In this document: piece by piece, positions 15,044 to 61,404 of the stretch
How positions within the stretch are numbered: the stretch's first letter is position 1
How the letters are laid out: every line of letters starts with the position of its first letter
Source of the DNA: a virus
Reading direction: 5' to 3' (one strand)
DNA: 64,000 nt
Virus record (IMG/VR): IMGVR_UViG_3300023223_000479
Notes under the pieces: model-generated
Told to the model about the DNA's origin: nothing
Seen by the model: only the letters and a program-made list of their open reading frames with translations
Database searches by the model: none
Translations under genes and position numbers: made by a program

Positions 15044-15191
15044 AATTATAAACGTTGATACTCAAAGGTAAGCTTTATATACTTATGAAGCAAATAAATG
15101 TAAGTTACTTGAAGAGATGTAAAATTTTTACAAGTTGGGCTAGGATAGTAATAGTAGAAAGCTTACCTTTATTTTATAATAAAAAGAAACT

Positions 15192-15467
15192 ATGAACACT
15201 CAAAGCAATACACCTCCAAATAATATCTCTGAAAAAGGATGGACTATGTTATGCGATATAGCCACTGATGCATCTAACAAAAGGGTAGAATTAATACAAA
15301 AATATAAGGCCCAAGGGCAAGGCAATATAGTGGTTAACCTTAAGCATGGTGCTAAATATATTTATGGGGAAACAGTACCCCAACCTTATATACAATTACC
15401 TGGAAAAATAGGTATGCAACAGCAAATAGATGATTGGGATTTATGGAAGTTAACAGATACATTATGA
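15192..15467 (+). CDS. Hypothetical protein in an inverted block
   Basis: Preceded by the AAAGCTTACCTTTA promoter motif; block bracketed by palindromes 15118 and 15793. Confidence 0.7.
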   Translation: MNTQSNTPPNNISEKGWTMLCDIATDASNKRVELIQKYKAQGQGNIVVNLKHGAKYIYGETVPQPYIQLPGKIGMQQQIDDWDLWKLTDTL

Positions 15468-15754
15468 ATCTGATAAAGCAACCAATCATATCCTATAATC
15501 AGTTCCACAGTTCTCACAAATCATTTATTGATTTGGTAACAGGTAAGGTGTATACCTTTGTGAGGACGAATAAAAACAAGTGGTGCCTACAGTATGTGGG
15601 AATCAGGAAAAGCAAAAAACAATGTTTTATGTTGGCTCTAATCTCTGTAAAGTATGAAGTACCAAAGCCGGAATACTATCACTTTTATTGTCCCGGTATA
15701 CGTGCTGGAATCGTAGGTAAAACCAAGAACGGGTTATTTGAGTACGAATATTAA
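15464..15754 (+). CDS. Hypothetical protein in an inverted block (start MNLIKQ)
   Basis: ATGA overlap with the stop of the preceding gene. Confidence 0.65.
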   Translation: MNLIKQPIISYNQFHSSHKSFIDLVTGKVYTFVRTNKNKWCLQYVGIRKSKKQCFMLALISVKYEVPKPEYYHFYCPGIRAGIVGKTKNGLFEYEY

Positions 15755-15802
15755 TATCTATTACTGCTAAGATAAGGCACTTATATACAGCCTATAAAAA
15801 TT

Positions 15803-17413
15803 TTACACACTAACACCCCCACCTCCTCCCTCCAAATCATCTCGGTACTTCCTCATCCAATTCCACATAACAGCGGCATCAAACAGGTTAGGCGATTTCC
15901 CGCCTAACTGCTCCTTTACCTGAGCCTTAGGTATTATCTTTATCTTCTGAGTACCAGGGGCTTTCTTATGAGCTATACACTCCTTTTTAAATTGCCTCTT
16001 TATTTCTGGACTCTCATAAACAATACCAAACTCTGCCTTATTCAACTCATCAAAGAAAGTCCATATCATTTGAGATCTCAAAGATACAAAATCTATATAA
16101 TTCTTACCGTTCTCATCCAAGGGTAAAGCCTCTTTATTTGCCCCACCAATCAAGCTCACACACTCGTAATCTTCATTCTGTAGCGTTTCTAGGGTACTCC
16201 ATCCAGGACCATTACTATCTACCCCTATCTGCTCATCATAGATATCATAATCTCCTAATGTAGGTATGTTGTAATTCAAGTACCCCAAATCCTCACACTC
16301 ATCAGAATCATATATTAAATTGTAGGCTAAATGAGATGCATTGGGACATACAAACTCCCTCATTAATTCTAATCTATTCTTTCTGCCAAACGCTACTGCT
16401 CCCTTATCACCGTTCGTAGATCGTGCAACGTCAACACCCACAGCGTTATAGCTCTCATCATCCCAGGGAAATTCATCATCATCTAGCGCCCCTAACTCAT
16501 AAGCCCTATCTAATGATCCAGCTTTTAATAACGAATCTATACCCTCTTTAGGAGATATCCCTCTAACCCTTGATTTAAATATAGCCGTATCTATGTTCTC
16601 ATTATTCAATCCTGCTTTCTTTTTTATACTTAATTGAGATACAGCACCTACATACACATCCTCTCCTAGCACTACATTAGGATAATCAAACCCTGATATC
16701 TGAATATGAACTACATCAAACCTCTCACAAAACTCATGTAGGGCATCTGTTTGGCTGTCAGGATTACCCATAACAATAATCATATTGTTAGCTGATACAG
16801 AGGTTTCAGTAATCGATTTTAATACGCTATGAGGTACGCCTGCACCCTCATCTATCACATATAGCATATGCTCACCGTGACCGCCTTGCAAAGTTATATT
16901 GGTAGTCTCTCCTGCCTTAACCCTGGCACCAAATCCGAATGCCTGCCACTTACTACTTTCTAAATCTTCATCGTCACAACTAATCCTCATACTATCATAT
17001 ATCCTAGCCTGAGGCTGTAATCTTTGAAACTTAGGAAAAGCCATCTGTACCTCTAACCACAAAGTCTTTTTTAAATGTCCGGCTGTGGGAGATATCATCC
17101 TAACCGTTGACTTTTCAAATACATCTAAAAACCAGTAGATTATCCTGGCAACAGAAAAAGATTTGCCTACCCCTGTAGCAGCCTCAACCCCTACCCATAC
17201 ACCCATAGCAAGAGTTTCCCACATCTTACATAGAGGATCTACTGTACCATCCCAATCATGGTTACTATACTCAGGGTATAGGCTCCACCTGTAGTCCTTC
17301 TCATCCTCTCCCCATCTCTCTACTAACCACAACATAGGATCTAATGCATATAGATCCCTCTTATTGGGGTAAACATCATAAAAATTCTTGGAATTTACCT
17401 CTACAGTACCCAT
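15803..17413 (-). CDS. terL: Terminase large subunit
   Basis: Walker A AATGVGKS, Walker B YVIDEG, coupling motif MGNP, nuclease GVDVA, GVDSNGPG and PNLFDA. Palindromes at both ends. Confidence 0.92.
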   Translation of the reverse strand: MGTVEVNSKNFYDVYPNKRDLYALDPMLWLVERWGEDEKDYRWSLYPEYSNHDWDGTVDPLCKMWETLAMGVWVGVEAATGVGKSFSVARIIYWFLDVFEKSTVRMISPTAGHLKKTLWLEVQMAFPKFQRLQPQARIYDSMRISCDDEDLESSKWQAFGFGARVKAGETTNITLQGGHGEHMLYVIDEGAGVPHSVLKSITETSVSANNMIIVMGNPDSQTDALHEFCERFDVVHIQISGFDYPNVVLGEDVYVGAVSQLSIKKKAGLNNENIDTAIFKSRVRGISPKEGIDSLLKAGSLDRAYELGALDDDEFPWDDESYNAVGVDVARSTNGDKGAVAFGRKNRLELMREFVCPNASHLAYNLIYDSDECEDLGYLNYNIPTLGDYDIYDEQIGVDSNGPGWSTLETLQNEDYECVSLIGGANKEALPLDENGKNYIDFVSLRSQMIWTFFDELNKAEFGIVYESPEIKRQFKKECIAHKKAPGTQKIKIIPKAQVKEQLGGKSPNLFDAAVMWNWMRKYRDDLEGGGGGVSV

Positions 17414-17434
17414 TGTGTAAAAATTTTACACTCT

Positions 17435-17638
17435 CTATTTGTGGCTTAGAACGCTATCAATAGCTTTTATCTTCTCTAACATAGTATCAAACTCATACAA
17501 TACTCCATCCATTGTAAGCTCTATAGTATCCATCTGAGGTATTGAATCTGTACTATTTGTATCCTTATTGTCAGTATAGCACCCGATCAACAGCAAGCTA
17601 CTTAATAAGGGTATCATAAACTTTCTGTACAATATCAT
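17435..17638 (-). CDS. Lipoprotein, probable o-spanin
   Basis: Lipobox LLLIG-C; 5' end overlaps the 3' end of the membrane coiled-coil gene. Confidence 0.5.
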   Translation of the reverse strand: MILYRKFMIPLLSSLLLIGCYTDNKDTNSTDSIPQMDTIELTMDGVLYEFDTMLEKIKAIDSVLSHK

Positions 17639-17879
17639 TTTGTTTCTTTTGTATCTCCTGCAATTCCTCTATCTTCTCATTGATAGAGGTTAACTGGTAC
17701 TGTAGTAGGTCGGGATTAATCTGCTCAATTTTAACAACTCGTTTTTTAAGGCTGTCTATCTCAAAATTGGTAGTTACTTTCATAGTGTAATAACTACCAA
17801 TAAATCCAATTACTACTACAACTATAGTTATAATATTCCCAAGAGAAAGCTTAAAGCCTGTTTCCTTAATCGAAGTCAT
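17598..17879 (-). CDS. Membrane-anchored coiled-coil protein, probable i-spanin (or holin)
   Basis: Single N-terminal TM segment (IITIVVVVIGFIG) followed by a coiled coil. Confidence 0.5.
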   Translation of the reverse strand: MTSIKETGFKLSLGNIITIVVVVIGFIGSYYTMKVTTNFEIDSLKKRVVKIEQINPDLLQYQLTSINEKIEELQEIQKKQNDIVQKVYDTLIK

Positions 17880-17902
17880 AATAATAATACGGTAACTGAT
17901 TT

Positions 17903-18544
17903 CTATAAATTAGCTCCAGCTTTAATAAAGCCGGAAACGTGTATTTCTCCATCTAATACCTCAAAAGACAATACATCACACTCTCCATCTATATTGCTTA
18001 ACGTTACGCTTACGCTATTAGCAAATACAGGTAACTCAATGATCCCTGTTAATCCCTGCTCCAATAACAATACACCTCTTAATCCCTGCTTCTTTTTCCA
18101 TACTACAGTAGTAGTTTCGTTGGCTTTAGGCTTTATATAGATCCTGTTATTTATCTTATCCAAAGGTACATTAATAGACCCACTAACCTCTATTAGATTT
18201 ATAACCTGAGTATGAAACCCAAACATTTTAGATGAAAACTTTCTACGCTTAACTAATGGGTATAGTGCTTCTAAAGAACTATGTAAAGTATCTACTGGCT
18301 CTGCTGCCATCCTAACCATTTTCTTTTTATCTTCCGTAGCCATTGAGGGATAATCATCCCCAAGATGATGCATTAACCCTCCTCTCATTCTAAGTGGATC
18401 TCCGTACCCATCCATAAAAGCAGCTACCCACTCATCTAATATATCTGATACATCTGAATACCCTACAGAGGGAGTCTCTGAGGGAGATAATAACTCATAG
18501 CTCTTACCATTCGGATCATCTTCTTTATATAGTATTGGATGCAT
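17903..18544 (-). CDS. Hypothetical protein, structural region
   Basis: 213-aa ORF with a beta-rich C-terminus. Confidence 0.65.
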   Translation of the reverse strand: MHPILYKEDDPNGKSYELLSPSETPSVGYSDVSDILDEWVAAFMDGYGDPLRMRGGLMHHLGDDYPSMATEDKKKMVRMAAEPVDTLHSSLEALYPLVKRRKFSSKMFGFHTQVINLIEVSGSINVPLDKINNRIYIKPKANETTTVVWKKKQGLRGVLLLEQGLTGIIELPVFANSVSVTLSNIDGECDVLSFEVLDGEIHVSGFIKAGANL

Positions 18545-18551
18545 TACTGTG

Positions 18552-19283
18552 TTATTGTGGTCCTACTGTTGTTATCCTATACCTTAAATCACTCGCATCA
18601 TACTCCATATCACATACTCCTCCAGGCTTCAAATCAAAATCACTAGCAGCCCTAAACCTATTAGGTATAGAGGAGGATATATTATTCTTTAAAGTTATCG
18701 TATCACTGCCTATATTGACTAGCCTAACCTTAATACCATTCACAGCAGGTACTAAAGCCTCAAACCCTGTTAACTCTATAGATGTTGAGGAGTCTAGGTT
18801 TATCTGCCTTACCATTATAAGACCTGTAGCCGGTCCTGGTAAAGCATCTAAAAATCCAGGAGGATTATAATTATCTGTATCGGTAATTAACTGAGCAGGA
18901 GTTAATATTATCAATGGTATCTCTCCCCTTACTACCCACTCAAAAGTATCAGAATAAAAATCTACTGATTGACCCTGAGTATCCAACACCAACTCAGACC
19001 TAAACCCTATCTTTTGAAAAGCAAATGTATTTATAGTGATATTATTTGTGCTCTCATCTGTCCTCTCTATACTATGCTCCCTCCTAGGAGATAACGCTGT
19101 AGTACCTACGTCTGGTAGGTTAAACTCTATATCTCCTCCTGATGCATCTACGGAAAAGGACGTATCATTAGGGCCTACAGTTACGGGAGAATCTGCAAAT
19201 ACAATCTTACGTACAGATGGTATTTCCGCTGTAGCTCCTGCCGATCTATTTTTTTCTATTGATCCTCCCCAATGCGAATGCAT
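18552..19283 (-). CDS. Tail-fibre-associated protein
   Basis: VDASGGDIEFNLP...IERTDESTNNITI repeat type seen in phage fibres. Confidence 0.55.
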   Translation of the reverse strand: MHSHWGGSIEKNRSAGATAEIPSVRKIVFADSPVTVGPNDTSFSVDASGGDIEFNLPDVGTTALSPRREHSIERTDESTNNITINTFAFQKIGFRSELVLDTQGQSVDFYSDTFEWVVRGEIPLIILTPAQLITDTDNYNPPGFLDALPGPATGLIMVRQINLDSSTSIELTGFEALVPAVNGIKVRLVNIGSDTITLKNNISSSIPNRFRAASDFDLKPGGVCDMEYDASDLRYRITTVGPQ

Positions 19284-19284
19284 A

Positions 19285-19629
19285 CTACTCCCAAGTTAAT
19301 TTATCTATATCATCTTGATCAAACTGAACCACATACCCCTTCTTATGAAAGCCATTCCTCTTTGTACCCCCTGTAGTATAGTTCATAACACCCATATTCT
19401 CCATACCTACTCCATCCCTAAACAGCAATAACGGATTCAAATCTATCTTACCAGGAGTACCCCCTATATCTATAATAATCCTATTCTCAAAAACATTTAG
19501 TTGAGCATTCATCATAGCAGAAGGTACGGCACGTTCATTAGCCCCTCCTCCTATACCTCTCTCAGCTACCCACTCCATTTGCATAGATGAGGTATTAAGC
19601 TCTTTGTAAAATTTTGTAGCTACTCCCAT
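19285..19629 (-). CDS. Structural-module hypothetical protein
   Basis: Gly-rich 114 aa, translationally coupled. Confidence 0.6.
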   Translation of the reverse strand: MGVATKFYKELNTSSMQMEWVAERGIGGGANERAVPSAMMNAQLNVFENRIIIDIGGTPGKIDLNPLLLFRDGVGMENMGVMNYTTGGTKRNGFHKKGYVVQFDQDDIDKLTWE

Positions 19630-21143
19630 TATGCCGCTAAATTAGGTAGCCCCTGTCTGTTTCCGCCTTCCTCAGCAGAGAAGTTTGTAAGATCAAATCC
19701 ATCTGCTCCTCCCCCTGATATTAAATTTGTAGTAACGTTATAGGCTACCATAAATTGATTAGCAGCAGCACCCGCTACAGCAAAAGTAGAGCCTCCCGCT
19801 ATAATTGTAGTATTATGTATTCTGGCCCTATTAGCCCCTGAACTAAACTTAACAGCTACAGGAGAATTACCCGCTGCTGTTCCTGATGCCTGATTTATTT
19901 GACTCCATCCAATCCTACCTGAATTCTGTCCCGCACCTATCCTAGAATCTTGCGTCAATGCTATCCGACAATTCCATATAAATGCTCCATTGCGTAGCTG
20001 AGAAATACCCGTACATGATAGGAAATCACAAGCCTCAACAAATCCATCCACAAATCCACAGCTAACCCCTATCTCTGTTCTCCAAATGTTACCGGTGAGA
20101 ATACCCCCATTAGATAGAATACTTAGCCTTATTCTACACCTTAAGATACTTCCAGGCGCTATAGCTCCATCAATAGCATTATTATCAAAGAAACACTCTG
20201 AGAGAGTCCCTATTAGAGTTCCGGCATTACCTCCAAAACTAAACTGAGCCTGAGTAACCAAACGGTATCCAGTACCATCAAAGGAATTACCCACCCCCAC
20301 AGCAAACTCTCCCAAACATTCAAAGAACCCTGCTATAATAACATCAGCACTCCAATTTAATCCTAAAGCCCCACTACTACAATTATCATAGGAGCCTCCT
20401 ATTGTAGCCCCTACTACTGAATCCATATCTAAAAATGTTCCTGTAGTGCTAACCACATGAACCCTAAGCCAATGTCCTCCAATATCGGTGATACCTACTC
20501 CTGCCTTAATTTCTCCATCCACTATTATATCCTGGTAATGGTGCCGACTCCTACCAAACCCATCTAATGTATCTTGATTGATAGTTATAGACTTACAGTT
20601 AAACCCTCCTATCCATGTTTCAGTATCATGCCCCGCATCGATGGTTATATCTCCCAGATACAATCTTGTAGCCCCTGCAAAAGCATCTATCTCTACGCGC
20701 CTATCCGCTATTTCTACTGCTGTCCAAGTCTCAATAGCAGGCTTAACACTAGGGCAAGGAATAAACCTCTCAGCGAGTAAAGTAACCCCCTGTTTAATAT
20801 TACCATCCTCCCCGCTAAAATCGCCTTGATTAACCACTATTACCCACCACTGACCCATAAGATCATCAGCACGATCTATAGCAGTTTGTAGAATCTTATA
20901 GGGTTTGTTACGGTCCTGCTCTTTGGCCTTTCCATCATCTCCTCCAACCAGATCTACAAATATAACCCCATAGAATGTAGGTTTGTATGTTCCATCTGGT
21001 ATGTTCCAATTCCCATCCTTATCTAAAAAACTATCGGCAGGAGCACCCCCACTACCAGGGACTACTCCAGGATTAGACCCCTTATATACTCCCCATCTTC
21101 CTTTCTGGGTTAAGCCGTCAAAGTTACTTTTTCCTCCACCCAT
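19629..21143 (-). CDS. Tail spike/fibre with right-handed beta-helix
   Basis: VDLVGGDDG...KPYKILQTAIDRA pectate-lyase-like start, then Gly/Asn/Cys-rich beta repeats; 504 aa. Confidence 0.65.
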   Translation of the reverse strand: MGGGKSNFDGLTQKGRWGVYKGSNPGVVPGSGGAPADSFLDKDGNWNIPDGTYKPTFYGVIFVDLVGGDDGKAKEQDRNKPYKILQTAIDRADDLMGQWWVIVVNQGDFSGEDGNIKQGVTLLAERFIPCPSVKPAIETWTAVEIADRRVEIDAFAGATRLYLGDITIDAGHDTETWIGGFNCKSITINQDTLDGFGRSRHHYQDIIVDGEIKAGVGITDIGGHWLRVHVVSTTGTFLDMDSVVGATIGGSYDNCSSGALGLNWSADVIIAGFFECLGEFAVGVGNSFDGTGYRLVTQAQFSFGGNAGTLIGTLSECFFDNNAIDGAIAPGSILRCRIRLSILSNGGILTGNIWRTEIGVSCGFVDGFVEACDFLSCTGISQLRNGAFIWNCRIALTQDSRIGAGQNSGRIGWSQINQASGTAAGNSPVAVKFSSGANRARIHNTTIIAGGSTFAVAGAAANQFMVAYNVTTNLISGGGADGFDLTNFSAEEGGNRQGLPNLAA

Positions 21144-21145
21144 GA

Positions 21146-21391
21146 TTAAGCATTTGTTACTATCACCTTAGGACCACCTACATCATCAAATGTAAAATTT
21201 ATAGGCTGATATAGTGCGGTATCTGGATCAGTGGTATCCAATAAAGCCCACTGAGCAGGAGTTTTTGATTCATCCAATACAGGATGGTAAAGCCAGTTAG
21301 AGCCTGCCATAAATTTTATCTCATCTGTGAGATCGAGTTTAGGCTCTAGCTCTGTAGCGGCTGATAATAATTGTGGTCCTGTTAATGCCAT
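21146..21391 (-). CDS. Small structural protein
   Basis: 81 aa in the fibre operon. Confidence 0.6.
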   Translation of the reverse strand: MALTGPQLLSAATELEPKLDLTDEIKFMAGSNWLYHPVLDESKTPAQWALLDTTDPDTALYQPINFTFDDVGGPKVIVTNA

Positions 21392-25968: not shown

Positions 25969-25996
25969 AAATAATTGAGATGTAAAAATTTTACAC

Positions 25997-26359
25997 TTAT
26001 CTAGCAGTTTTAAAATTACCGTCCTTACACTCTCTCATATGGTCCGTACATGATCCTTTCTCAAAATCTCCAGATATTGTATAAATATGTAGGTAATTAG
26101 TTTTAACTACCTTACCTCCTCTATGATAAGTATATTTACGCTCTGTTATAATCCTCCTACCATCAACTATCATATAGCAGTTTCCCTCTTTACCTTTCAT
26201 TGACTGGTCATGGTTTATAGTGATATCAGAGTAAGTAGCATCTTTAACTACTGTAGGGTTCTCCCTTATACCTTCCCCTCCTAGATTGTACAGATCATTA
26301 AACCCCTCACTCAATCGCCTATGTCTAGCTATAAGTTCTGTATATGTTAAGTCGTTCAT
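25997..26359 (-). CDS. Hypothetical protein
   Basis: Own TACCTTTG box (26382-26389); single gene between palindromes 25981 and 26419. Confidence 0.7.
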   Translation of the reverse strand: MNDLTYTELIARHRRLSEGFNDLYNLGGEGIRENPTVVKDATYSDITINHDQSMKGKEGNCYMIVDGRRIITERKYTYHRGGKVVKTNYLHIYTISGDFEKGSCTDHMRECKDGNFKTAR

Positions 26360-26442
26360 AACCTTATTACTTTATTATAATCAAAGGTAAGCTTTCATAC
26401 TTACAATTCCTAACTACCTGTAAAATTTTTACACCCTATATA

Positions 26443-27806: not shown

Positions 27807-28086
27807 TTGATTATTTTTTAATACGCAATTATTGACAAGATAGTATATTTAGGCGGTATAATCAAATACCAAAGCAAAGGCTATCATTAACAACCTTATG
27901 AGGGATCAGGTGCCCGTAGGTACTATAGAGAGTGATAGCTATCAGAGATACTGAGGCTATCTTTGAGATAATAAAATTTTTCATCGTTGTAAGCGTTTTG
28001 TTTAATAATACCTAAAGGTAAGGTTTGTATAATTACCAAACAACTGCTTACATCTAAAATATATAATAATATATAAAAATTTTACA

Positions 28087-29770: not shown

Positions 29771-30249
29771 TAACCAAAGGTAAGGTTTATATAATTAACA
29801 TCCTAATAAGAAAGGTAGCCCCGTATAGAGACTACCTTTACCAACGTTTAGAAAGCAATGACCCTTAATAGATCATCTTATTTGAAAGAACGAGACTAAC
29901 TATATTTTATAATCAAAGTAAAGGGTTTCTCTTTTATCCTCAAACGTATTTAAGTAGTTGCTCTGGGAATCAGTCTAAGTATCTGATTCAACTCATTTTT
30001 ATTCTCACAGTCACAACGAGAGCTTACCCTTTACTTTGACTACTACCTTACGAAATTTTTTACAATCTCTGCGATAGGTCTATCATAGTTCCTTCTATAA
30101 GAGGAAAAGGAAATAATAGAAATATTTATATTATTAGATACAGGTTTATACTCTGCCTTCTGCCTTACTTTTTTCTTTTGTGCCATACCCCAATATAACA
30201 ATTTACCCTTACCTATCAAACCTCTGAGGAAGTGTAAAATTTTTACAGG

Positions 30250-34849: not shown

Positions 34850-35040
34850 GATTACTTAATTAGATAGTGCGCTCAAATACTCCGAATCAATTCCTTTGTA
34901 GTGTTTACCGCTCAGAAGATGTATAATCTCACATCTCTTACCCTTTACCTCTAATACACTATACAAGCCCTTAAGCAATCCCTGTAGGTTATGGTTGAGT
35001 AAGCTGAGTATATCTCCTGTTTTGATCATACCTAAAGGTA

Positions 35041-35095
35041 AGGTTTTATATTGAGTGATCCTAATTAGGTTTTATATTGAGTGATCCTAATTAGG
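35041..35095. repeat. Perfect 26-bp tandem duplication in a promoter region
   Basis: AGGTTTTATATTGAGTGATCCTAATT x2 plus AGG, between a TACCTTTA box (35033-35040) and palindrome 35097. Confidence 0.92.
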
Positions 35096-35112
35096 GTGTA
35101 AAAATTTTACAC

Positions 35113-36141: not shown

Positions 36142-36190
36142 GATCAAAGGTAATGTTTATATATAACAATTGCAAGTAGATGTAAAATTT

Positions 36191-44230: not shown

Positions 44231-44369
44231 ACCTTAAAGATACAAAATCAATACTTACCTATAAACCCTACCTTTTATGTATAACTACATTGATAAAAAA
44301 GTGTAAAAATTTTACAGGCATTAGGATTTCTCATTATAAAACCTTACCTTTAGGTATACTATCAAATCA

Positions 44370-44627
44370 ATGGCAAGAACTACAGATTATACCGTAACCG
44401 TAACCTCTAAGGAAGGATTCATTAGAGCTACCTTTAGAGAGTACTCTATGACTCAAGGAGATTTAGAAGGGAATGAGTTAGTAATAAATGGTCCTATCAA
44501 TGGAGTAGATATGATGGATATAACTCTGGATGAGTTTACAGATTCAGGAGGCGAACCTTTTATATTTCCTTTAATGGAGAATGCATTAAACCTTTACTTA
44601 TCTGAGAACAATGTAGGAGAGGGGTAG
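44370..44627 (+). CDS. Acidic small protein in an inverted single-gene block
   Basis: Own TACCTTTA box; its TAG abuts palindrome 44628; upstream palindrome at 44302. Confidence 0.75.
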   Translation: MARTTDYTVTVTSKEGFIRATFREYSMTQGDLEGNELVINGPINGVDMMDITLDEFTDSGGEPFIFPLMENALNLYLSENNVGEG

Positions 44628-44637
44628 TGTAAAAATT

Positions 44638-45120
44638 TTACAATTTGATATACTCTGATAGATCGTCCTCTATATAGCCCTTGAACCATTCCCTAAGAAA
44701 GTTTATACCGTACTTACTAAAGTAGTAATCCTTATACTCTCCTATCCCTAATCTATCGTGTATAGCTTTAGCGAATGCATCTGCCTGCTGTTCATAATAT
44801 AGACAATTACTCATACTGCTATAATACGAATCCTCACCGTACTCATTCCATTGAAACCAGTGAGCTATCTCATGAAATATAGTACCATAATCTTTAGTTG
44901 TAGCTAACCCAATTACATTCTCATCGGCATCCATAAACCCAGAACATCCCTCAATCTGATAAGTAACCCCCATACCTGTTAGCGTACCTACCAACTCCCT
45001 ATCTGATGCCTGCAACAACTTCTTATCCTGGATAGTCTTAACAGTATCCACCACTATCAACTCCATAGCAAGAGGTAGTATCAATTTATTGATGTCAGTT
45101 ATTATCTTAGGAGAGTACAT
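44638..45120 (-). CDS. HExxH metallopeptidase-like (IrrE/ImmA-like) protein
   Basis: TIFHEIAHWFQ...YEQQADAFA. Confidence 0.65.
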   Translation of the reverse strand: MYSPKIITDINKLILPLAMELIVVDTVKTIQDKKLLQASDRELVGTLTGMGVTYQIEGCSGFMDADENVIGLATTKDYGTIFHEIAHWFQWNEYGEDSYYSSMSNCLYYEQQADAFAKAIHDRLGIGEYKDYYFSKYGINFLREWFKGYIEDDLSEYIKL

Positions 45121-47447: not shown

Positions 47448-47769
47448 AGCTGTTACCTCTGGTTCTTTCTATAATATCAAAGCCTCTACATCCTCTCCTA
47501 TATCCTAACGGCCTTATTACACAGCCTGTAGCCCTTACTATTGATGTCCCAAGTTTATACCCGCTCTTTGATATAGATAACTCCGTATGGAAGGCTATCC
47601 CGTACCATATACCACATACTTCACCATAATAATAAGAATCTGGGTACTCTTCAACATCTATACTTGAAAACATTAATATACCATAATCATCAACACAAGC
47701 TACTGTGATATAATTTGGTACACCATTAAATACCTCCTGAGTAAGTTCTTTATCTCCCTGGTAACTCAT
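47359..47769 (-). CDS. Hypothetical protein
   Basis: Its overlap with the next gene suggests the 3' end may be frameshifted. Confidence 0.45.
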   Translation of the reverse strand: MSYQGDKELTQEVFNGVPNYITVACVDDYGILMFSSIDVEEYPDSYYYGEVCGIWYGIAFHTELSISKSGYKLGTSIVRATGCVIRPLGYRRGCRGFDIIERTRGNSYEQAKRTSNRGDRRSMAIQRYSRTYSHYL

Positions 47770-49073
47770 TTGCTCCCCTCTGGTTTAATATTTATCTCCT
47801 CCTTTATGCTCTGATATAAATCCCTCGCCAACACCGTACCTCTATATGTTTTGTCGTATTTCTCCATCTGTATATCGTAGCCATGTTTGGCTAAAAATTC
47901 ATCCGTCTCTGACTCCCTTATAACATCCTCCTTCTCATACAATCCTAATGCACTTGCTATACCTATTACCAGTACATCTTTATCCTCCTCAAATACCTTA
48001 GGTAGATTATTATATATGATCTCACTCACTATCCTAAGCTTTCCATTCCTTGTAGGCTTAAAATCTACGCTATCTAATAAATCCATAATCTGTACTCTAG
48101 TATTACCCCTACGAGGAGGAGCCTGAACTAACATCTTTTTCTTATACATCTCCTCGGTTTCCTCTACATTGCCCCGCTCTATATCCTTTATCTTGCCCTC
48201 CTCTAGTTGATCTATTATAGCCTTAACGAATAGTACCCACAAGTTAGTATACTGGTATTCTTTCTTATACCGTTCTATAGCTCCCTCATACCAATCTGCT
48301 TTATCCCAATCAGACCCTAACCCTAAATCATACCATATACCTATAATAATAAAATCTTTGGAGGATCTAAAATCTTTAGGAATAGTATTAGCTACTATAC
48401 CCCCTATTAATCTCCGCTTACCCTCTATAGTAAAATTGCATACATGTAACTCATCCTCTAGTAGCTCTTTAATCCTCTTTATACAATTCTCAGTATCAAT
48501 GGCTGCTGTAGTACATAAAAGATACGCGGCTTCTACTCCCATATCCTCCTGTATAGAATTATTAAACCCATGCTCTATAACTCCCTCACCATCTTTACCT
48601 AATCTTACATGCTCAAAATCTATTAGATTTTTATCCTGATCTACTGTTTCTAACTCTTCCTTATTACTTACCTGAACATCTACTATAGATACTGTACTTA
48701 ATGCCTCCTCTACCTGAATATTAGTTACCTCTGTACGTACATATTTCATTAGGTTCTGGTATAGCCTAGTACCCTCAATCTCCTCAAACATACCTGCATC
48801 CCCATGATGTTTAGATACATCAGCGTATCTCTGGGATAGCTCCTGAAAAGTGAAAGACCTATGCCGCAATAGTTGAGTACCTATTGCTCTGCTGGTATCT
48901 ATCTTAACAGTTAAATACCCATGTTCAAAAGGACTCCAATGCTTATTAGCTATCAAATACTTTAACAGCTTATCCCCCTCCACTTTCTTATCTTTTCGAG
49001 AGGAAGAAACCCTAGCTATTTCAACTACAAAATCCTCTGCTTTAGGTGTTGAACAAATTAACTCCACTTTCAT
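47766..49073 (-). CDS. thyX: ThyX (flavin-dependent thymidylate synthase) N-terminal half fused to an unrelated sequence
   Basis: ARVSS, HWSPFEH, TSRAIGTQLLRHRSFTFQELSQRYADV match ThyX; after about residue 98 no ThyX motifs remain. Confidence 0.75.
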   Translation of the reverse strand: MKVELICSTPKAEDFVVEIARVSSSRKDKKVEGDKLLKYLIANKHWSPFEHGYLTVKIDTSRAIGTQLLRHRSFTFQELSQRYADVSKHHGDAGMFEEIEGTRLYQNLMKYVRTEVTNIQVEEALSTVSIVDVQVSNKEELETVDQDKNLIDFEHVRLGKDGEGVIEHGFNNSIQEDMGVEAAYLLCTTAAIDTENCIKRIKELLEDELHVCNFTIEGKRRLIGGIVANTIPKDFRSSKDFIIIGIWYDLGLGSDWDKADWYEGAIERYKKEYQYTNLWVLFVKAIIDQLEEGKIKDIERGNVEETEEMYKKKMLVQAPPRRGNTRVQIMDLLDSVDFKPTRNGKLRIVSEIIYNNLPKVFEEDKDVLVIGIASALGLYEKEDVIRESETDEFLAKHGYDIQMEKYDKTYRGTVLARDLYQSIKEEINIKPEGSK

Positions 49074-51880: not shown

Positions 51881-52234
51881 ATGAAATTCTTAATTATATC
51901 GATGTGCCTGTTCTGTAGTACAAACCTATTCTCTCAACCCCCTGTTATATCTCAGGATTCTGTTTTGATTAGAGTCACTACAGCCGGTAACTATTTTAAA
52001 CACTACCATACAGAAAGGAAACGTGCACTATTCTTTGGCGGATTCTTTATAGCCGTTGGGCAAATACCTCTATGGACCGGGATACGTAATGATGAGCAAG
52101 TGGTTAAGTATTTGGGATATGGTACTGTAGGTGCTGGACTCGTTTATTTTATAGTTCAGAGTCTTCATGCTGAGAGATGGTTAAAGCGTGCCGGAATAGA
52201 ATTGAGTGGGGATGGGGTTAAGTTCCTGTTTTAA
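51881..52234 (+). CDS. Secreted/membrane protein
   Basis: Signal peptide MKFLIISMCLFCSTNLFS plus two TM segments; Bacteroidota-style C-terminus (GVKFLF). Confidence 0.75.
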   Translation: MKFLIISMCLFCSTNLFSQPPVISQDSVLIRVTTAGNYFKHYHTERKRALFFGGFFIAVGQIPLWTGIRNDEQVVKYLGYGTVGAGLVYFIVQSLHAERWLKRAGIELSGDGVKFLF

Positions 52235-52448
52235 AAAGCTCCTTTAGCTCAACACCTAAACCCTTAGCAATATTGTATAGCGTTTCAATCCTTGGATTTC
52301 TATGCCCGTTCTCAATCTTGCTGATAGTAGATTTGGGAATTCCAGATACCGCCTCCAGTTCCGACAACGACAAACCAGCTTTTCCCCTTAAATTCCTGAT
52401 CCGTTTCCCCAACTCTGTTTTGAATTCTTTCACGCATAAAGTTTGCAA
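52218..52448 (-). CDS. XRE/Cro-C1 HTH transcriptional regulator
   Basis: LGKRIRNLR...LSLSELEAVSGIPKSTISKIENGHRNPRIETLYNIAKGLGV. Confidence 0.92.
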   Translation of the reverse strand: MQTLCVKEFKTELGKRIRNLRGKAGLSLSELEAVSGIPKSTISKIENGHRNPRIETLYNIAKGLGVELKELFKTGT

Positions 52449-53507: not shown

Positions 53508-54206
53508 TTACCCTACATATCTAAATAATCTTTCTACTACAGGCTTACCCTCCTCAAGCCTTAAAACAGATTTCATCTCCATCTCCCAAACACACTCAAA
53601 ATCATCAGGAGCATTATATTCAGATATAAATACTATATGGCCCTCCCTAGTCTTTTGTCTGCACCATTCCCAAAATCTAATACCATCAAACTTTGAAACA
53701 TTATATTCAGTAGTTCCTTTATAGGGAGGATCACAATAAATGATAGACTTTTCCGGTATATATAATCTATCGTATTGTCTATAACCTAGCTGTACTCCTT
53801 GCAGTTTTCTCGATTGTCTAACAGCAGCTTTATAGCCAGATTTTATATAATCCTTACCCTTTGAATCTCTTCTCCATCCTCCAAAATACTTACCTCCAAA
53901 ACTTAAATGAAATCCGTAATATCCTTTCATACCAGGATCTTTAGAGGATTTCATTTGATGGTAAATCCCCTCATTTGTATCTGCATTAGATTTAGGTAAC
54001 TCATCAAGCCTATCTCGGATTGTTTCTAATGCTTTTATTGCGTAGAAATTGCTGTCCCCTCCTATACGATTACCGGAAACCTTATCAATCATATTTCCAC
54101 CACCCACAAAAGGCTCAACATAAAATTGTCTATAACCCCTTCTCTCTTTTAGGATTATCTTTAATATATGTTTCGCCAATTTTGTCTTACTCCCCATGTA
54201 TATCAT
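53508..54206 (-). CDS. D12-class N6-adenine DNA methyltransferase (Dam-like)
   Basis: YMGSK, YVEPFVGGG and IYCDPPY motifs. Confidence 0.88.
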   Translation of the reverse strand: MIYMGSKTKLAKHILKIILKERRGYRQFYVEPFVGGGNMIDKVSGNRIGGDSNFYAIKALETIRDRLDELPKSNADTNEGIYHQMKSSKDPGMKGYYGFHLSFGGKYFGGWRRDSKGKDYIKSGYKAAVRQSRKLQGVQLGYRQYDRLYIPEKSIIYCDPPYKGTTEYNVSKFDGIRFWEWCRQKTREGHIVFISEYNAPDDFECVWEMEMKSVLRLEEGKPVVERLFRYVG

Positions 54207-54670: not shown

Positions 54671-55960
54671 ATGAATGTTATGATCAAGATAGTCAAATCT
54701 AACCGTAAAGTAAGCCCCTTCAGCGGAATCTCTTTTGTTATCAATGAGATTGAAAAAGCCTATATACCCGCACTCATTGATAACTCATTTCCTAAACGTC
54801 ACGGCAGTAGCAAGTACGGATATGCTGATGCAATTCTCTCCCTGATTTATGGTACAATATGCGGGGCTGATAGATTGGATGATTATGCCTCTCTAAAAGG
54901 TAAACTCAACGATTCCTCCCTTAATATTCCCTCTCCTGTATCGTTGGGTAGGATCATGAAAGAGAAACTTAAAACCTCTAATACTGTAGTAGGTAATCAC
55001 ACCATCAACATCAACGAAAGACTCAACGAGTTACTATTGGATATAGCCGTTTCTTTGGGTCAACTCAACGTGAATAACAAATACATTTTAGATTATGATA
55101 ATACCTGCATCCCTTGTGAGAAAGAGGATTCAGATTGGACCTATTTGAAATTTAGAGGGTATCAACCAGGAGTATCCTTTATAGGTCAGATTCCAGTTTA
55201 TATTGAAGGTATGAACGGGAACAATAACGCTAAGTTCGATCAGACCAATACATTAAAGCGCACCCTCTCAAATCTCAAACGGAAAGGAATACAAGTTAAA
55301 GTATTTCGGGCTGATGCTGCCAGTTATCAAAGTGAAATATTTGAGTTAATGACAGAGGAAAACATAACTATTTTTGTACGGGCTGAAAATAATCCTGATC
55401 TGATGGACTTCATAAAATACCACAGATCTAACGCATGGGATACTGTAACGCTGAAATACGACACCTTTGAAATATGTAGCTTTGAATACACACCTTTCAG
55501 CGCACAAAAGAGCTATAGAAAAAACCAGAAAGAATACAGGATAGTTACAGCCCGCAGACCAAGAGCAGATGGTAAGCCACATCATATAACAGGAGAGCCT
55601 TACGTATATCGTTCAATCATTACCGACGACCAAAACATATCAGACTTAGAGGTGATTGCGACCTATAACCAACGTGGCGCAATCGAAAGGAACTTCGATG
55701 TTCTTAATAATGATTGGAACTGGAATAAGCTCCCATTCTCTTTCCTCAGTGAGAATACAGCCTTTATGATCATTACCGCTATGGGGTTAGTTATGTACAA
55801 GTATATCGTTGAGTTATTTGCTGATAGGGTGGATTGGATTGAGGAAACAGATAGGCTAAAGAGGTTTCGGTATAACGTTATATCAGTAGCAGGAGAATGG
55901 GAAGGGGATACTCTTATGATACACGATGAGAGTAGACCCTGGGAGCAGCTTGTGGGGTGA
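54671..55960 (+). mobile_element. IS1380-family transposase (DDE_Tnp_1_4)
   Basis: SPFSGISF N-terminus, LDYDNT, GYQPG, RADAASY and YNQRGAIERNFD match Bacteroidota IS1380 transposases; 429 aa, intact. Element ends not identified. Confidence 0.88.
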
Positions 55961-56080
55961 TATAAGGAACTATATTTGAGAGTAAATGGTTAGGAGATAG
56001 ATACCTCCTTTTTTATTGAACCCCCATTACTTTATCTAAATTCCTTATCATGGTTTAACCTGCTTTCAGTATATTGGAAT

Positions 56081-56534: not shown

Positions 56535-56677
56535 TTTATATTGCTTTTGTTGGGGTAATTAAGGATGCTTGTGAGGAATTAATTACATTTATTATTATCT
56601 CAATCAGGAATGACTATTGTTCGTTAGAGAAGCTTATTATTTGAAAGATTTAGGTCAAGTAAGGCATAATACAATTA

Positions 56678-57145
56678 TTAATATTTACAAAGCATATTCC
56701 TGGTTTTAGGACCATGCTCTAGGTACTTATCCCACTTTACCCATCCTAACTTAGTCTCAAACCCCCAATCCCTCTTAGATCTACCCATAATAACAAAAGT
56801 AATTACAGGCTTAATTTGATGTTGGGGTAACACTACCCTATGCAAACTCTTGGACCGCCTATAAGCTATACTCAAAAATCCTCTAGTACTGGGTACGGTA
56901 TTTACCGTATGTTTTTTCCTACGGTACTCAATATACTCACCCCTCAATACTATAGATAAAAAGCTCCAAGGATGATCATGCAAACACCTATCCCCATCAC
57001 TTCTATATATCCAATGAATACAAAAAGAAAGTATAGGTGTTTTTAACACGGTCCTCCTATATAAATATATATCATCTCCTTCCTTTACTACCATCTTCTG
57101 CCATAATGCCCACCTTTTCCACCAGAACTTTTCATTTTTACTCAT
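56678..57145 (-). CDS. Cupin-like phage protein (start MSKNEK)
   Basis: CLHDHPWSFLSIVLRGEYIEY...HRV motif; TATCTTTG box 3 nt upstream of ATG 57145. Confidence 0.65.
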   Translation of the reverse strand: MSKNEKFWWKRWALWQKMVVKEGDDIYLYRRTVLKTPILSFCIHWIYRSDGDRCLHDHPWSFLSIVLRGEYIEYRRKKHTVNTVPSTRGFLSIAYRRSKSLHRVVLPQHQIKPVITFVIMGRSKRDWGFETKLGWVKWDKYLEHGPKTRNMLCKY

Positions 57146-57171
57146 ACTCAAAGATACAAAAATTAAGGGTA

Positions 57172-59194
57172 TCAATAAAGGGGAGGCGTCCAAAAGCCTA
57201 AGGCAAACCATCCCCACTGTATCACCCCCTCATAATCACATACCACATAATCCTTATTTGCATTAGCCTTAATACAGCAATCCTCAGCATAACTATATAA
57301 CACTCTATAACTTTTCCACTTGCTCCTATGACCCTTAACTAAAGAGTTTATCTGTCCCTGACCATCTCCATAAATTAAACCTCCATCTGCCAAATAGGGC
57401 TTTAAAGCCAAATCTTTAAACTTATTATCCAATACATAAAACCTATCAGGAGCCTCGATCAACTCAACATGCAAATCTATAGTACGGGTGGTGTCGCTAC
57501 TTGTTCTGTATAACCTGAAATGGTCTAACCAGGAAAGTATTACCCTATCTCTACCCAGAGAATAACCATAATCCTGTAGCACCTTAACCTGGATACCTGC
57601 TATATCTATCAGTGATATACCATAATTCTTTAATAGTTTCCTAGCTCTCCAATTCCACCCATCTCTCATACTCCTACTTATCCAAATCTCTTTGGGTAGT
57701 CCTTTCTTCTTTACTAAAGCTGTTATACGTTTAACTGTAAACATAATTTAATCCTCTCCGAATGAATGAAACAACTGCTCAGTAACTAACCTATCATTAA
57801 CTATCTTAAGCGTTTTACAAAGTTGCTCCGCTGTGAAATTAGATCTTTTTATAGATTCTAACATCTTCCTCACATTCAATGCCTCAGCTACATACTCTAT
57901 CGGTATTCCCTGCCTTAAACACTCACACACATTATTATCCTCAATCATAAGCTGTAAAAATTTTACACCTATATAAATTTAAGAACAGCAGATATACCCT
58001 CTACACTTCCAAACATAACCTCATAAGATAACGTCTGAGTAAAAAAACCGTTCTGCTTCAAATACCACGTACCCCTAGTACATGTAAAAAACACTCCCTG
58101 GGATTTTACCCTAACCCTATATTTAATATTGATCTCTTCTATAGTCATGCTATTCCACTACTTTAAAATTACCTCTACTACATGATTTATCGGGGTCATT
58201 GGATAACTCTACATCACTAGGCCAATCAAAGCATAGTTCCTCATCCGGCATAGCATCATTTACTATCAACTCTACGGTATCCGATTTTAAAGTACTCAAT
58301 ACTTTCTCCCCTCCTGGTAGTACCATTCCAGGCATCACCCCCAACGGTATACTACCCTCACTCTTTTTGAAATACTTCATAAGCGTTTTAGTATTGGCCG
58401 TAACCCTATCCGGTATACCTCGCTCATGAACTATCTTAGCCAACCTCCTAACTACTATATTATCGCTCATGCCCCTACATTAAGTACCAATGCTATATCT
58501 CTGAATCCGCCTATGCTCTTACCCAATATAGCTACCTCAGCATCATGAGGATTGCTTATTCCCAACTTCATACATCCAAACCCATTTAAGCCGTACTGCA
58601 CTCCTTTTATCTCCACCACAGGCATATCTCTAATAGGATGCTTTAACTCCACCACAGCCTCTTTAAACGGCCAAATATTGCCAAATTCATTCCTAGTTAA
58701 AAGAATACTATCTAAGGTAGATGCTCTCTCTATATATTTATCAAATACATTCATAATTATAGATCAGGGTGTACCCTGCAAATTAAAGACGTTAGATTAA
58801 CCACAAAACACGTATCCTCTCCCTCTTTCATATCGAAATTAGCTGTACCCTGCCAATAAGATACAAACCCACTCTCATAAATAGCAGCATATACTTTAAG
58901 CCCTATACCTTTTTCTCCGAAAGAAGATAGCACCATTTTAGTAGAATCCTTTATAGCCTGATAATGACCTATAGGATAATTACCAAACCGCTCAGGATGT
59001 CCTCTGAACTTCTTTAGATCAAACCCTAATTGATTCATTCGGGTAAGTAATAGCAAAAATACTACCTCCTCAAAGCAATAATTACCTCTAGTAGATTTAC
59101 TATCTAGCTTATCAAATATCCTACGTATTCTCCAATTACTAAGCTGAGATATATTTACACCTACCTTACTAAGATCCTGTAATTTATATATCAT
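57172..59194 (-). other. Hypothetical genes 57172-57744, 57748-57948, about 57969-58148, 58150-58470, 58467-58754, 58757-59194
   Basis: Coupled co-directional ORFs. Confidence 0.6.
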
Positions 59195-59360
59195 TTTGTT
59201 ATCGTAAAAGTAATACGCTTTCCGGCAAACCTATCAACCTTAACCCTCATTCGTAATATCTTACAATGCATTATAATTACTCTCCTCTGGTCCTTAGTTA
59301 ATTTACTAAGCCTCATCCTCTCATATAACTTACATTGCTTCTCTACCAAATACAACATAC

Positions 59361-60983
59361 TCATACTATCATAATATTATTCCTACTCGCCCTGGAGCAG
59401 GAGGTGTACAATAATCTCCTATGATAATCCGCTGATGCCATCGATTTAAACAATGTATTAATATCGTACTCAATCACAAATACAGTATCAAAACTACTAC
59501 CCTGAGATCTATGTGAGGTAGTGGCATGAGCATAAGTAAATTTAGCAAACACTTTTTGTAAATCATAATATTGACCCCATGCTATTCTAGCCTCATTTTT
59601 CTCCTTTGCAAACTTATGTTTTATTGCCTTCTGCCGCCACTCCTCTATAAATGCCTCAAACTCTGCCAACTCGGAAGGAAACAATATCTTACACGATGAG
59701 GGTAATATATCTCCCGTTCTATCACACTGGTACTCTACCTCAGTGTCGTAGTATCTGAATGTATGGTCCCTACCTATAATATGGGCTTTCGGAAAAGATA
59801 TAGTAGCCTCTATAGGATCTACTACCTTAAGCTCTGTAAAATTAGAGTGCTTAACTACCCTCTCTCCCGTTTCTAAATCTAATTCAAGTATAGGAGATCT
59901 GGTTATTATACTCTCACCTGGAATCAATGTAGGTAATTCCTCTGAATACTGATCCCTATAAATGAGCTTTCTTATTCTATGATTCCACCCCTCCACACAC
60001 TTATTATGATAGGCTATTACCTTAACATAATCGTTATCCTTTTTATAATGCTCACTACCGAAATACTTCAGCAATAGCTCATCTAGTTTATCGTCTCTCC
60101 GATCAATATAATATACTCCTCCTGTATCAGAGGTAATTGTTTTCTTTGGCCTATCTCTGTAGTTAGCTAATCGGATATCTGTAGCCATCGCCAATACAGG
60201 GTTATCCAATGCCTGCCGCATAACAGTGATTAGGTTGGATACTCGTATATCGTGGAATTCATGGTAAGACTGAGCAAATACGGTAGATATTCCCTTAATT
60301 AATCCTTTCTTATTCACTGGAGGTATTTGATCCGAATCACCTACAAATATTAATACTAGATCATCTTTCCAAGATAGTAACTCATCTACCAAAGAAAGAG
60401 CCTCCTTAGAATCTCCCGACTTGCCTAACATACTACACTCATCCACTATCACCACATCAAACCCTCCTATAGGCTCCTGACCCTCCATATACTTGTTAGG
60501 TGCGTATACCTCCTTACCATCCACTATACTAAGCTTTAACCCTAATAGGCTATGTACTGTAGCGTAATGTACTCTCGAATGGCTAGCCATGTTCACCTTA
60601 GCCCTATCATTGCTAAACTCTCTAAATGCATTAGTAAATGGGGATAACTTCCTAGTGATCTTTACAGCCTTATGGGTAGGGCAAATGATAGCTACATTCA
60701 TATTAGTCTTATGCAGCATCAAATGTACCAGCGTGGTTATTAAAGTAGTTTTACCCGTTCCTGCATGACCTAATAACAAATGGGCCTTACCCTCAGTGCC
60801 TTTAAAAAATCTCCTGAGATTATCTAAGGCTATCTTTTGTTCCTGAGTTAGAAAGCCTATATCAGGGTACTCAGATATATCTACCTTCTTAATATCTACC
60901 TTGGGAGCTATAAGCTTTAGGCTGAGTAATTGCTCTATAGGTGTTAGGCTAGATACTTGTGGAATCTTCTTAAGACTAATCAT
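59361..60983 (-). CDS. Dda/RecD-like SF1B helicase
   Basis: GHAGTGKT, PTHKA, IVDECSM, VGDSDQIPPV, YAHATTSHRSQGSSFD and LYTSCSRA. Start 60983 is favoured by the promoter box 3 nt upstream. Confidence 0.9.
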   Translation of the reverse strand: MISLKKIPQVSSLTPIEQLLSLKLIAPKVDIKKVDISEYPDIGFLTQEQKIALDNLRRFFKGTEGKAHLLLGHAGTGKTTLITTLVHLMLHKTNMNVAIICPTHKAVKITRKLSPFTNAFREFSNDRAKVNMASHSRVHYATVHSLLGLKLSIVDGKEVYAPNKYMEGQEPIGGFDVVIVDECSMLGKSGDSKEALSLVDELLSWKDDLVLIFVGDSDQIPPVNKKGLIKGISTVFAQSYHEFHDIRVSNLITVMRQALDNPVLAMATDIRLANYRDRPKKTITSDTGGVYYIDRRDDKLDELLLKYFGSEHYKKDNDYVKVIAYHNKCVEGWNHRIRKLIYRDQYSEELPTLIPGESIITRSPILELDLETGERVVKHSNFTELKVVDPIEATISFPKAHIIGRDHTFRYYDTEVEYQCDRTGDILPSSCKILFPSELAEFEAFIEEWRQKAIKHKFAKEKNEARIAWGQYYDLQKVFAKFTYAHATTSHRSQGSSFDTVFVIEYDINTLFKSMASADYHRRLLYTSCSRASRNNIMIV

Positions 60984-61053
60984 ACTCAAATATACCTACA
61001 ATAGATTATTAAGGCAAAGGTGTAAAATTTTTACAAAGTATTTTAGGTGGAGG

Positions 61054-61098
61054 CTTGTGTGGTAAATATAAAAAGCTTACCTTTATGTTATAACAAAA
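61054..61098 (+). repeat. 45-bp promoter/leader element identical to 11661-11705
   Basis: Exact inverted copy about 49 kb away, again next to a palindrome. Confidence 0.92.
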
Positions 61099-61109
61099 AA
61101 GAAAAAGAA

Positions 61110-61325
61110 ATGAAAACTTCAAAAATAACCGCCGGAACTTACAGCATCACAACAGCAAACGGAAAAGTATTTGTAGCACGTAAAGGAAAAAACGGGTTTT
61201 GGAGTTTGTTTAACTGTAAAGATTCAGATTCGACTCATGAAGATAACTGGCAAGATACCTACAACTCCTTGAAAGAATGTAAGTTAGAGGCAGAAAGATT
61301 CTCTAAGTTTGACCACACTAACTAA
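61110..61325 (+). CDS. Small protein in an inverted single-gene block (start MKTSK)
   Basis: Promoter, gene and terminator lie between palindromes 61021 and 61389. Confidence 0.75.
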   Translation: MKTSKITAGTYSITTANGKVFVARKGKNGFWSLFNCKDSDSTHEDNWQDTYNSLKECKLEAERFSKFDHTN

Positions 61326-61344
61326 AATAAAATAGCATAACAAC

Positions 61345-61372
61345 AAAGAAAGCCGGATCAATCCGGCTTTTT
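61345..61372. terminator. Bidirectional terminator
   Basis: AAGCCGGAT-CA-ATCCGGCTT with A-rich and T-rich flanks between convergent genes. Confidence 0.8.
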
Positions 61373-61404
61373 GTATTTTCCACTGATCTGTAAAATTTTT
61401 ACAC

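Follow-up and report, generated by a model that had tools for sequence, protein, structure and literature searches.

Here, we show that a 15-bp palindrome, TGTAAAAWTTTTACA, punctuates the genome of an uncultured, siphovirus-like phage. The DNA analysed is a stretch of 64,000 nucleotides (the window) from the IMG/VR virus record IMGVR_UViG_3300023223_000479, taken from a phage contig that is apparently 94.8 kb long, and in it the 15-mer marks the borders of expression units genome-wide and in either orientation. An earlier reading of the sequence alone (the original prediction) had singled out three plus-strand gene blocks in an otherwise minus-strand region as mobile or invertible cassettes, exactly bracketed by palindromes that would act as non-polar crossover sites and give an integron-like outcome. 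Our result is deflationary for that claim: bracketing by the palindrome is not special to plus-strand units, and the reversed blocks are ordinary self-contained, self-promoted ORFan add-on genes, of the kind known as morons. The reading that we favour, with a probability of roughly 55%, is that the palindrome is a protein-binding dyad that marks expression-unit boundaries and also acts as a short-homology patch for recombination.

When up to 2 mismatches to the search pattern TGTAAAANTTTTACA are allowed, the window holds 37 copies (28 exact, 8 with one mismatch and 1 with two), against 0.64 expected by chance and a largest value of 5 among shuffled sequences. All 37 lie between positions 1761 and 63528, have a 7-1-7 geometry and belong to no strand. 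The sole close relative, IMGVR_UViG_3300009788_000005 (85,758 bp, with direct terminal repeats and rated complete; hereafter the relative), carries 44 exact copies of the identical 15-mer. The palindrome has little polarity in the two genomes, with a centre base on the sense strand that is A at 48 copies and T at 36, and with G or C favoured in both flanks. Its arms are invariant and show no compensatory variation, which argues for recognition of the sequence rather than of a structure. As RNA the palindrome would form a weak hairpin (-1.0 to -1.8 kcal/mol), and a role as an intrinsic terminator was ruled out on the grounds of this weakness and of the real GC-rich terminators found just upstream. 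Four imperfect intergenic copies (window 15793 and 28072, relative 34292 and 42116) have outer-arm transitions that keep a G-U pair in the RNA of the sense (minus) strand, a sample too small to weigh.

The placement of the palindrome follows the ends and beginnings of genes. Of the 85 copies that window and relative have together, 17 enclose the TAA with which the preceding gene ends, and a further 30 have a stop codon 0-6 nt before them. An ATG follows the palindrome by 1-4 nt, with a peak at 3 nt, at 23 of the 85, including the starts of the terminase and of other large core genes. The palindrome is equally present at junctions of core co-directional genes, and most copies lie between conserved core genes. 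Association with promoters is strong: the palindrome stands 34-62 nt upstream of 10 of the 12 promoter cores, and 7 of the 9 co-directional junctions with a promoter carry it, compared with 19 of the 96 without one (p = 7e-4). Changes of strand are marked as well. Outside an island at 51.6-56.6 kb, described below, all six strand-switch junctions of the window have a palindrome, as against 26 of 105 co-directional junctions (Fisher p = 4e-4), and when the relative is included the figures become 10/10 and 65/231 (p = 5.5e-6).

Promoters of Bacteroidetes have the consensus TTTG/TAnnTTTG. The twelve promoters of the window are copies, about 45 nt long, of this -33/-7 type: a -33 TTG is followed by GGTAAnTATAnAAA and then by CTTACCTTT(A/G)GTAT, the -7 element reading TAccTTT(G/A), and each leads into an A-rich leader of 20-25 nt without a Shine-Dalgarno motif. 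Nine cores are on the minus strand (9715-9723, 11675-11683, 15064-15072, 26383-26391, 28014-28022, 29776-29784, 35034-35042, 36146-36154, and 40501-40509) and three on the plus strand (beginning at 15162, 44343, and 61076). The palindrome, promoter, and leader together form a head of about 90 nt that is reused, at about 90% identity, on unrelated genes in both genomes, and the similarity between heads begins exactly at the palindrome and stops at the ATG. At the three clear minus-strand terminators with perfect stems (stem ends 26451, 28094, and 31422), the order is hairpin, T-run, and palindrome, the last lying 8-20 nt past the stem, and at two of the three the next promoter comes after the palindrome; an imperfect hairpin before the palindrome at 35097 appears by eye to be arranged similarly. 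Two simpler functions were considered and rejected. A fixed-distance activator site is ruled out by the 34-62 nt spread to the promoter core, and a “split ribosome-binding site” made of a Shine-Dalgarno motif plus a hairpin is ruled out because Shine-Dalgarno motifs are not enriched in front of genes that lack an upstream palindrome.

The three plus-strand units are built from the same parts. A copy of the palindrome was found at all six of their edges, as the original prediction had said; five copies are exact and one, at 15793-15807, has one mismatch (TATAAAAATTTTACA). The first unit opens with the palindrome at 15118-15132, which lies between divergent promoters (minus-strand core 15072-15064, plus-strand core 15162-15170) and has its counterpart in the relative at 64185. 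The plus-strand core, CTTACCTTT, has a -7 box of the Bacteroidota TAnnTTTG type with a -33 TTG upstream, and is followed by two ORFan genes (15192-15467 and 15464-15754) coupled via an ATGA overlap; the palindrome at 15793-15807 then holds the TAA stop of the convergent terminase gene (15803-17413). In the second unit, the left palindrome (44302-44316) is 26 nt upstream of the promoter core (44343-44351), and the right palindrome (44628-44642) abuts the TAG of an 85-aa ORFan gene (44370-44627), for which no search returned relatives, and holds the TAA stop of the minus-strand gene 44638-45120. The third unit runs from the palindrome at 61021-61035, through a promoter core (61076-61084) within the head 61020-61112, an ORFan gene of 71 aa from its ATG (61110-61325), and an intrinsic terminator (61349-61378, with a 9-bp GC-rich stem, a 4-nt loop, and a T-run, and terminator-like on the minus strand as well), to the palindrome at 61389-61403, which lies 1 nt past the stop of the minus-strand gene 61405-61767. 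The contents of the units are thus those that had been described, from the promoters and genes to the touching TAG of the second unit and the terminator of the third; the first and second have their own promoters and no clear terminator. Searches of the plus-strand genes matched no Pfam or PHROG family, and two of them, including the first gene of the first unit, gave self-matches only when compared with 5.8 billion proteins.

What explains the bracketing? The left bracket of each unit is there because it is the outermost element of the unit's own promoter head, as at 7 of the 9 minus-strand promoters, and the right bracket because a palindrome stands at the stop of the convergent minus-strand gene (15803, 44638, and 61405), as at about 47 of the 85 sites. 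Hence the fallback that the original prediction had allowed itself, sites at divergent promoters and at convergent ends, accounts for the bracketing itself. The head of the third unit is about 90% identical to a minus-strand head (11650-11738), that is, in the opposite orientation. The minus-strand segments 11723-12097, 25981-26433, and 63260-63528 do run from palindrome to palindrome, as had been noted, and the two plus-strand units of the relative (18494-18943 and 64270-64548) are bracketed likewise. It also holds that the plus-strand genes of the island are not bracketed, a single imperfect copy (54389) being found at a strand switch there. The third unit has the features of a moron, with its own promoter, gene, and terminator, a position between adjacent operon genes, and absence from the relative.

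The positions of the palindrome are conserved between lineages. Window and relative keep it at the orthologous junctions 7066/58511, 22540/71529, 4441/55623, 15118/64185, 15793/64554, and 25981/74927. A more distant relative, L010 (JGI 3300076572 Ga0564963_000009), whose terminase is 42% identical, whose G+C content is 54%, and which is syntenic with window 2207-17413, has another dyad, (GG)TTAAACNGTTTAA(CC), at 9 places in 21.7 kb (positions 1826-20553). The layout is like that of the window, the site enclosing a TAA and being closely followed by an ATG, and copies are found at the orthologs of the window's 4441 junction and of its 12083 slot border (a variable slot after a 284-aa gene). Two junctions are therefore marked in three lineages, with L010 using a different palindrome there, and the conservation of position through a turnover of the dyad sequence suggests a phage-encoded binder that co-evolves with its site.

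In light of these observations, what might the palindrome do? It would be a docking site for a dimeric DNA-binding protein, probably phage-encoded, the latter because the distant syntenic relative has a different dyad at the same junctions. We favour such a protein because the hairpin is weak, the arms are invariant, the centre and flanks are nearly symmetric, and those copies that stand between a T-run and the next promoter or between divergent promoters (window 15118, relative 64185) fall largely outside transcripts. The putative binder may insulate or gate transcription at the borders of units. A stretch of 15-25 bp that recurs at many borders could then serve passively as a patch of short homology, and recombination between such patches would insert, delete, or swap the segments between them; the outcome would be a cassette-like pattern without a dedicated recombinase and without inversion. 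Of possible binders, the HTH_3 protein encoded at 52221-52448 is the sole clear helix-turn-helix protein, but it was rejected because its gene is part of the foreign island and has no counterpart in the relative, and ParB was rejected as PF02195 is absent from the relative. Pfam and PHROG searches of 30 conserved small proteins returned only a RusA-like resolvase and domains of unknown function (DUFs).

Comparison of the window with the relative yields about 12 indel or replacement events, 5 of which have a palindrome at both borders, where about 8% would be expected (binomial p = 0.0015). The third plus-strand unit, 61021-61403, is absent from the relative, which has a single palindrome there (17107, orthologous to the copy at 61021), 6 nt past the stop of the preceding gene; from this copy to the ATG of the helicase there are 37 nt, and the two orthologous copies lie 37-38 nt upstream of that ATG. 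Conversely, the plus-strand unit 18409-18973 of the relative is absent from the window, where the site consists of a stop, 8 nt, and an ATG, with no palindrome, and at the place of the window's minus-strand unit 63260-63528 (a 70-aa gene between two palindromes) the relative has a stop, 1 nt, and an ATG, again with no palindrome. These last two inserted segments begin and end with a full palindrome, 0-9 nt from the neighbouring stop or start codons. In the slots 10447-12097, 15118-15807, and 25981-26433, the palindromes are conserved but the genes between them are unrelated in window and relative. Hence, the part of the original prediction that spoke of mobile cassettes stands insofar as palindrome-bounded segments are gained, lost, and replaced, and lacks support insofar as it implied integron-like site-specific mechanics. 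Bearing on the test it had suggested, whether rearrangements break inside the 15-mer in an alignment of related genomes, are the 5 events bordered at both ends on the one hand and, on the other, three indels without any palindromes (the helicase 8088-9689, the gene 14318-14668, and the gene 59191-59364).

Several points weigh against our reading. No binding protein was found among the candidates searched. In two of the three clean indels, the empty site (window 62653-62662 and relative 19596-19598) is free of palindromes, which counts against our reading because recombination between two palindromes should leave one copy behind. Palindromes are only marginally commoner at synteny breakpoints (15/40) than at conserved adjacencies (2/16, p = 0.06). 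The tight 3-nt spacing to the ATG hints at a constraint on RNA or translation, as does the G-U pair kept on the sense strand in all four imperfect intergenic copies. Finally, the comparison relies on one close relative, so that each event may be either a gain or a loss.

Some of these points would suit a purely regulatory punctuation mark with no role in recombination, the borders of indels coinciding with palindromes simply because both occur at gene boundaries and because inserted genes need punctuation of their own. The two palindrome-free empty sites look as if palindromes travel with, or are selected around, expressed genes, and the marginal breakpoint enrichment and the three palindrome-free indels point the same way. 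We nevertheless regard this explanation as unlikely, given the excess of events with palindromes at both borders, the two copies around 61021-61403 where the relative has one, the 25-bp direct repeat containing the palindrome that flanks the module 10447-11747 (below), and the head similarity that begins exactly at the palindrome.

Could the element instead act in RNA? A site in polycistronic mRNA that serves processing, stability, or the coupling of stop to start in a host without Shine-Dalgarno motifs would fit the TAA inside the site, the ATG peak 3 nt after it, the lack of a Shine-Dalgarno motif upstream of genes that have no palindrome, and the retained G-U pairing. However, a hairpin of just -1 to -1.8 kcal/mol, arms that are invariant without compensatory variation, and a centre base and flanks that are nearly symmetric are not what such an element would lead one to expect, and the copies after T-runs, upstream of promoters, and between divergent promoters stand where there would be little or no RNA. 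We consider an RNA-level role to be quite improbable.

The dedicated system put forward by the original prediction, in which an unrecognised recombinase would insert or invert palindrome-bounded units at a non-polar crossover site, is in our view very unlikely. It draws on the presence of the site at all 10 strand-switch junctions outside the island, on the inserted segments that start and end with a full palindrome close to the neighbouring codons, and on the symmetry of the site, which would allow either orientation. Against it, the complete relative has no tyrosine recombinase (PF00589), serine recombinase (PF00239), or Y1 transposase (PF01797), nor were RecT, ERF, ParB (PF02195), or HTH_3 found there. 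The statement that no recombinase is recognisable in the window agrees with a Pfam sweep of 120 open reading frames (ORFs) in it, which revealed no tyrosine or serine recombinase, Y1 transposase, or ParB among the best 25 of 36 families, the remainder being expected to be weaker (E above ~5e-6, if ordered by E-value). Inversion finds no support, as the approximately 45 shared genes all have the same orientation in window and relative, the slot beside the terminase is on the plus strand in both, and the centre base, which is the sole asymmetry of the site, is in direct orientation across two brackets, inverted across two, and undefined in one. Conservative site-specific recombination would not leave palindrome-free empty sites, and the occurrence of most copies between conserved core genes, at positions kept across three lineages, is difficult to reconcile with a crossover site dedicated to cassettes. 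A minimal phage integron would be a variant of the same idea: some unrecognised activity that is neither a tyrosine or serine recombinase nor a Y1 transposase would use the palindrome as its crossover site and carry palindrome-bounded ORFan genes, whichever way round, between phages of this lineage, a palindrome standing alone being a vacant docking site. We regard this as very unlikely, too.

The G+C content of the window is 37% and its GC skew is strongly negative. Its genes lie almost all on the minus strand, and those recognised include a large terminase, two SF1 helicases, a ThyX-like protein, methyltransferases, and a RusA-like resolvase. The relative, whose terminase is 70% identical, also encodes a tape-measure protein, DNA polymerase A, and a primase. 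It was the one terminase match at 70% among 5.8 billion proteins, all others being at or below 46%, and the matches at 40-46% identity include genome bins of Raineya (Bacteroidota). The host is probably a member of the Bacteroidota, because the promoters have the -33 TTG/-7 TAnnTTTG form, Shine-Dalgarno motifs are lacking, and there are terminase relatives in Raineya bins. Megablast of the window against GenBank phages gave no match, and a tblastn search for comparators gave matches only at 31% identity or less. Scans of viral and metagenome contigs for the palindrome-plus-promoter pattern returned the same relative and chance matches only, and a scan of bacterial genomes for GTGTAAAAWTTTTACA showed, among the matches listed, scattered single copies but no array in any host or prophage. 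Among further terminase relatives, L134-L137 have a baseplate resembling that of myoviruses and lack a repeated palindrome, and L008 has just 3 operator-like palindrome copies, at promoters.

The island at 51.6-56.6 kb probably represents inserted foreign DNA. Its GC skew is near zero, the palindromic punctuation is lacking, and its genes include a Cro/C1-type HTH_3 protein (52221-52448), a Dam-like methylase (53508-54206), and an insertion sequence with a DDE transposase (54671-55960). A 1.3-kb module on the minus strand (10447-11747) is flanked by 25-bp direct repeats (10447-10471 and 11723-11747) that consist, read on the minus strand, of ATGAGCGAG plus the palindrome. Within it is an 83-aa gene with its own promoter, and the module probably also holds the C5 cytosine methylase of the window, a Pfam match that is not mapped to a gene. 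One copy of the repeat starts a DUF7178 gene, such that the palindrome is translated as codons 4-8, and the other starts a stranded mini-ORF of 12 codons. The variable slot at 25981-26433 on the minus strand contains a 120-aa ORFan between palindromes, where the relative has unrelated small ORFs between the palindromes 74927 and 75538.

Three further observations concern neighbouring genes. Beside the terminase, a block of seven genes (window 17435-21391, relative 66300-70849) has no BLASTP match between the two genomes at E <= 1e-4, with flanks that are 50-70% identical; its products include a 504-aa protein, opposite which the relative encodes one of 505 aa, and the block may represent either a module swap or extreme divergence. 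The 146-aa protein encoded at 62216-62653, which is 72% identical in the relative, matches a RusA-like Holliday junction resolvase (phrog_1682, E = 2e-8). In the 435-aa ORF at 47766-49073, the ThyX-family match is confined to residues 1-90, leaving about 345 residues without a match.

For a decade, dispersed and perfectly conserved dyad repeats have been known from several actinobacteriophage clusters, with no function proven for them. What the present lineage, probably from another host phylum, adds is that positions are kept across three lineages while the dyad itself has changed, arguing for a co-evolving phage protein, that copies lie between terminator T-runs and promoters, arguing for action on DNA, and that several clean indels are edged by palindromes. 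If the binder were identified, it would explain how dozens of units can be gated or insulated by one protein, and also how ORFan genes are slotted into compact genomes.

Integron attC sites are imperfect palindromes of 57-141 bp, with extrahelical bases that make them strand-selective, and the cassettes they delimit are promoterless and co-oriented. The likeness of the present case to attC/IntI and to Hin and Gin segments is one of outcome only, in that gene-sized units are bounded by symmetric sites. In place of an attC site there is a perfect 15-mer, the units have their own promoters and lie opposite to their neighbours, and no IntI was found in the relative or among the listed families of the window. 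The invertible systems of the Hin/Gin/Cin and shufflon type differ as well, there being no invertase family in the relative or among those listed for the window, no consistent pair of inverted sites, and no gene seen in opposite orientation between the genomes. The REP/RAYT and parS/ParB pairings are not represented either, PF01797 being absent from the relative and ParB both from the relative and from the families seen in the window.

The stoperators known from Cluster A mycobacteriophages are 13-mers that lack symmetry, have one orientation, and are bound by the monomeric immunity repressor of a temperate phage (PMC9283540). They resemble the palindrome in being dozens of near-identical sites spread genome-wide through short intergenic spaces, and a single phage protein that binds them and blocks elongating RNA polymerase offers a possible working model. 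In contrast, the site described here is symmetric, and neither an HTH_3 repressor nor an integrase was found in the relative. Morons of lambdoid phages are promoter-gene-terminator units inserted between phage genes; unlike the units described here, the classical ones do not have a common repeat at their flanks as a defining feature.

Closer parallels are found in two other groups of phages. In T4-type phages, PeSLs are cassettes with a promoter that recombine and form the borders of ORFan indels (Arbiol et al. 2010, PMC2839356; Comeau et al. 2014, PMC4122927). Excised mini-circles are a further feature of the kind. As with PeSLs, a promoter and a symmetric element flank ORFans, the same head is found on unrelated genes, and indels and replacements are bounded by the element; the mechanism proposed for PeSLs, as here, is homologous recombination rather than a site-specific enzyme. 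A PeSL, however, comprises a sigma-70 early promoter and a real stem-loop terminator and is restricted to hyperplastic regions, whereas the 15-bp dyad described here is weak, stands apart from the true terminators, and also occurs among core structural and replication genes.

The other parallel is with Cluster O mycobacteriophages, which have more than 30 copies per genome of a 17-bp dyad, TGTTCGGNNNCCGAACA, with invariant 7-bp arms, a variable centre of no clear polarity, and G/C-rich flanks (Cresawn et al. 2015, PMC4351075). These repeats lie mostly in short intergenic gaps or at the 5' ends of genes, some segments have two repeats where relatives have one, and both the binding of a dimeric protein and recombination between repeats were proposed by the authors (PMC4351075). 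A similar 18-bp inverted repeat is known from the Microbacterium phages of Cluster EG (PMC7302621). The phage of the window resembles Cluster O in copy number, invariant arms, variable centre, and placement in short gaps, as well as in keeping the motif at orthologous junctions and in having two copies at 61021-61403 where its relative has one. It differs in its sequence, in its AT-rich 7-1-7 geometry, and in its probable Bacteroidota host. Further differences are that the TAA stop routinely comes from the site itself and an ATG follows 3 nt later, that the site is strongly tied to promoters (10/12) and to every strand switch, and that a distant syntenic relative has a different dyad. Judged by these analogies, the present case combines features of Cluster O repeats and of PeSLs in a new host group.

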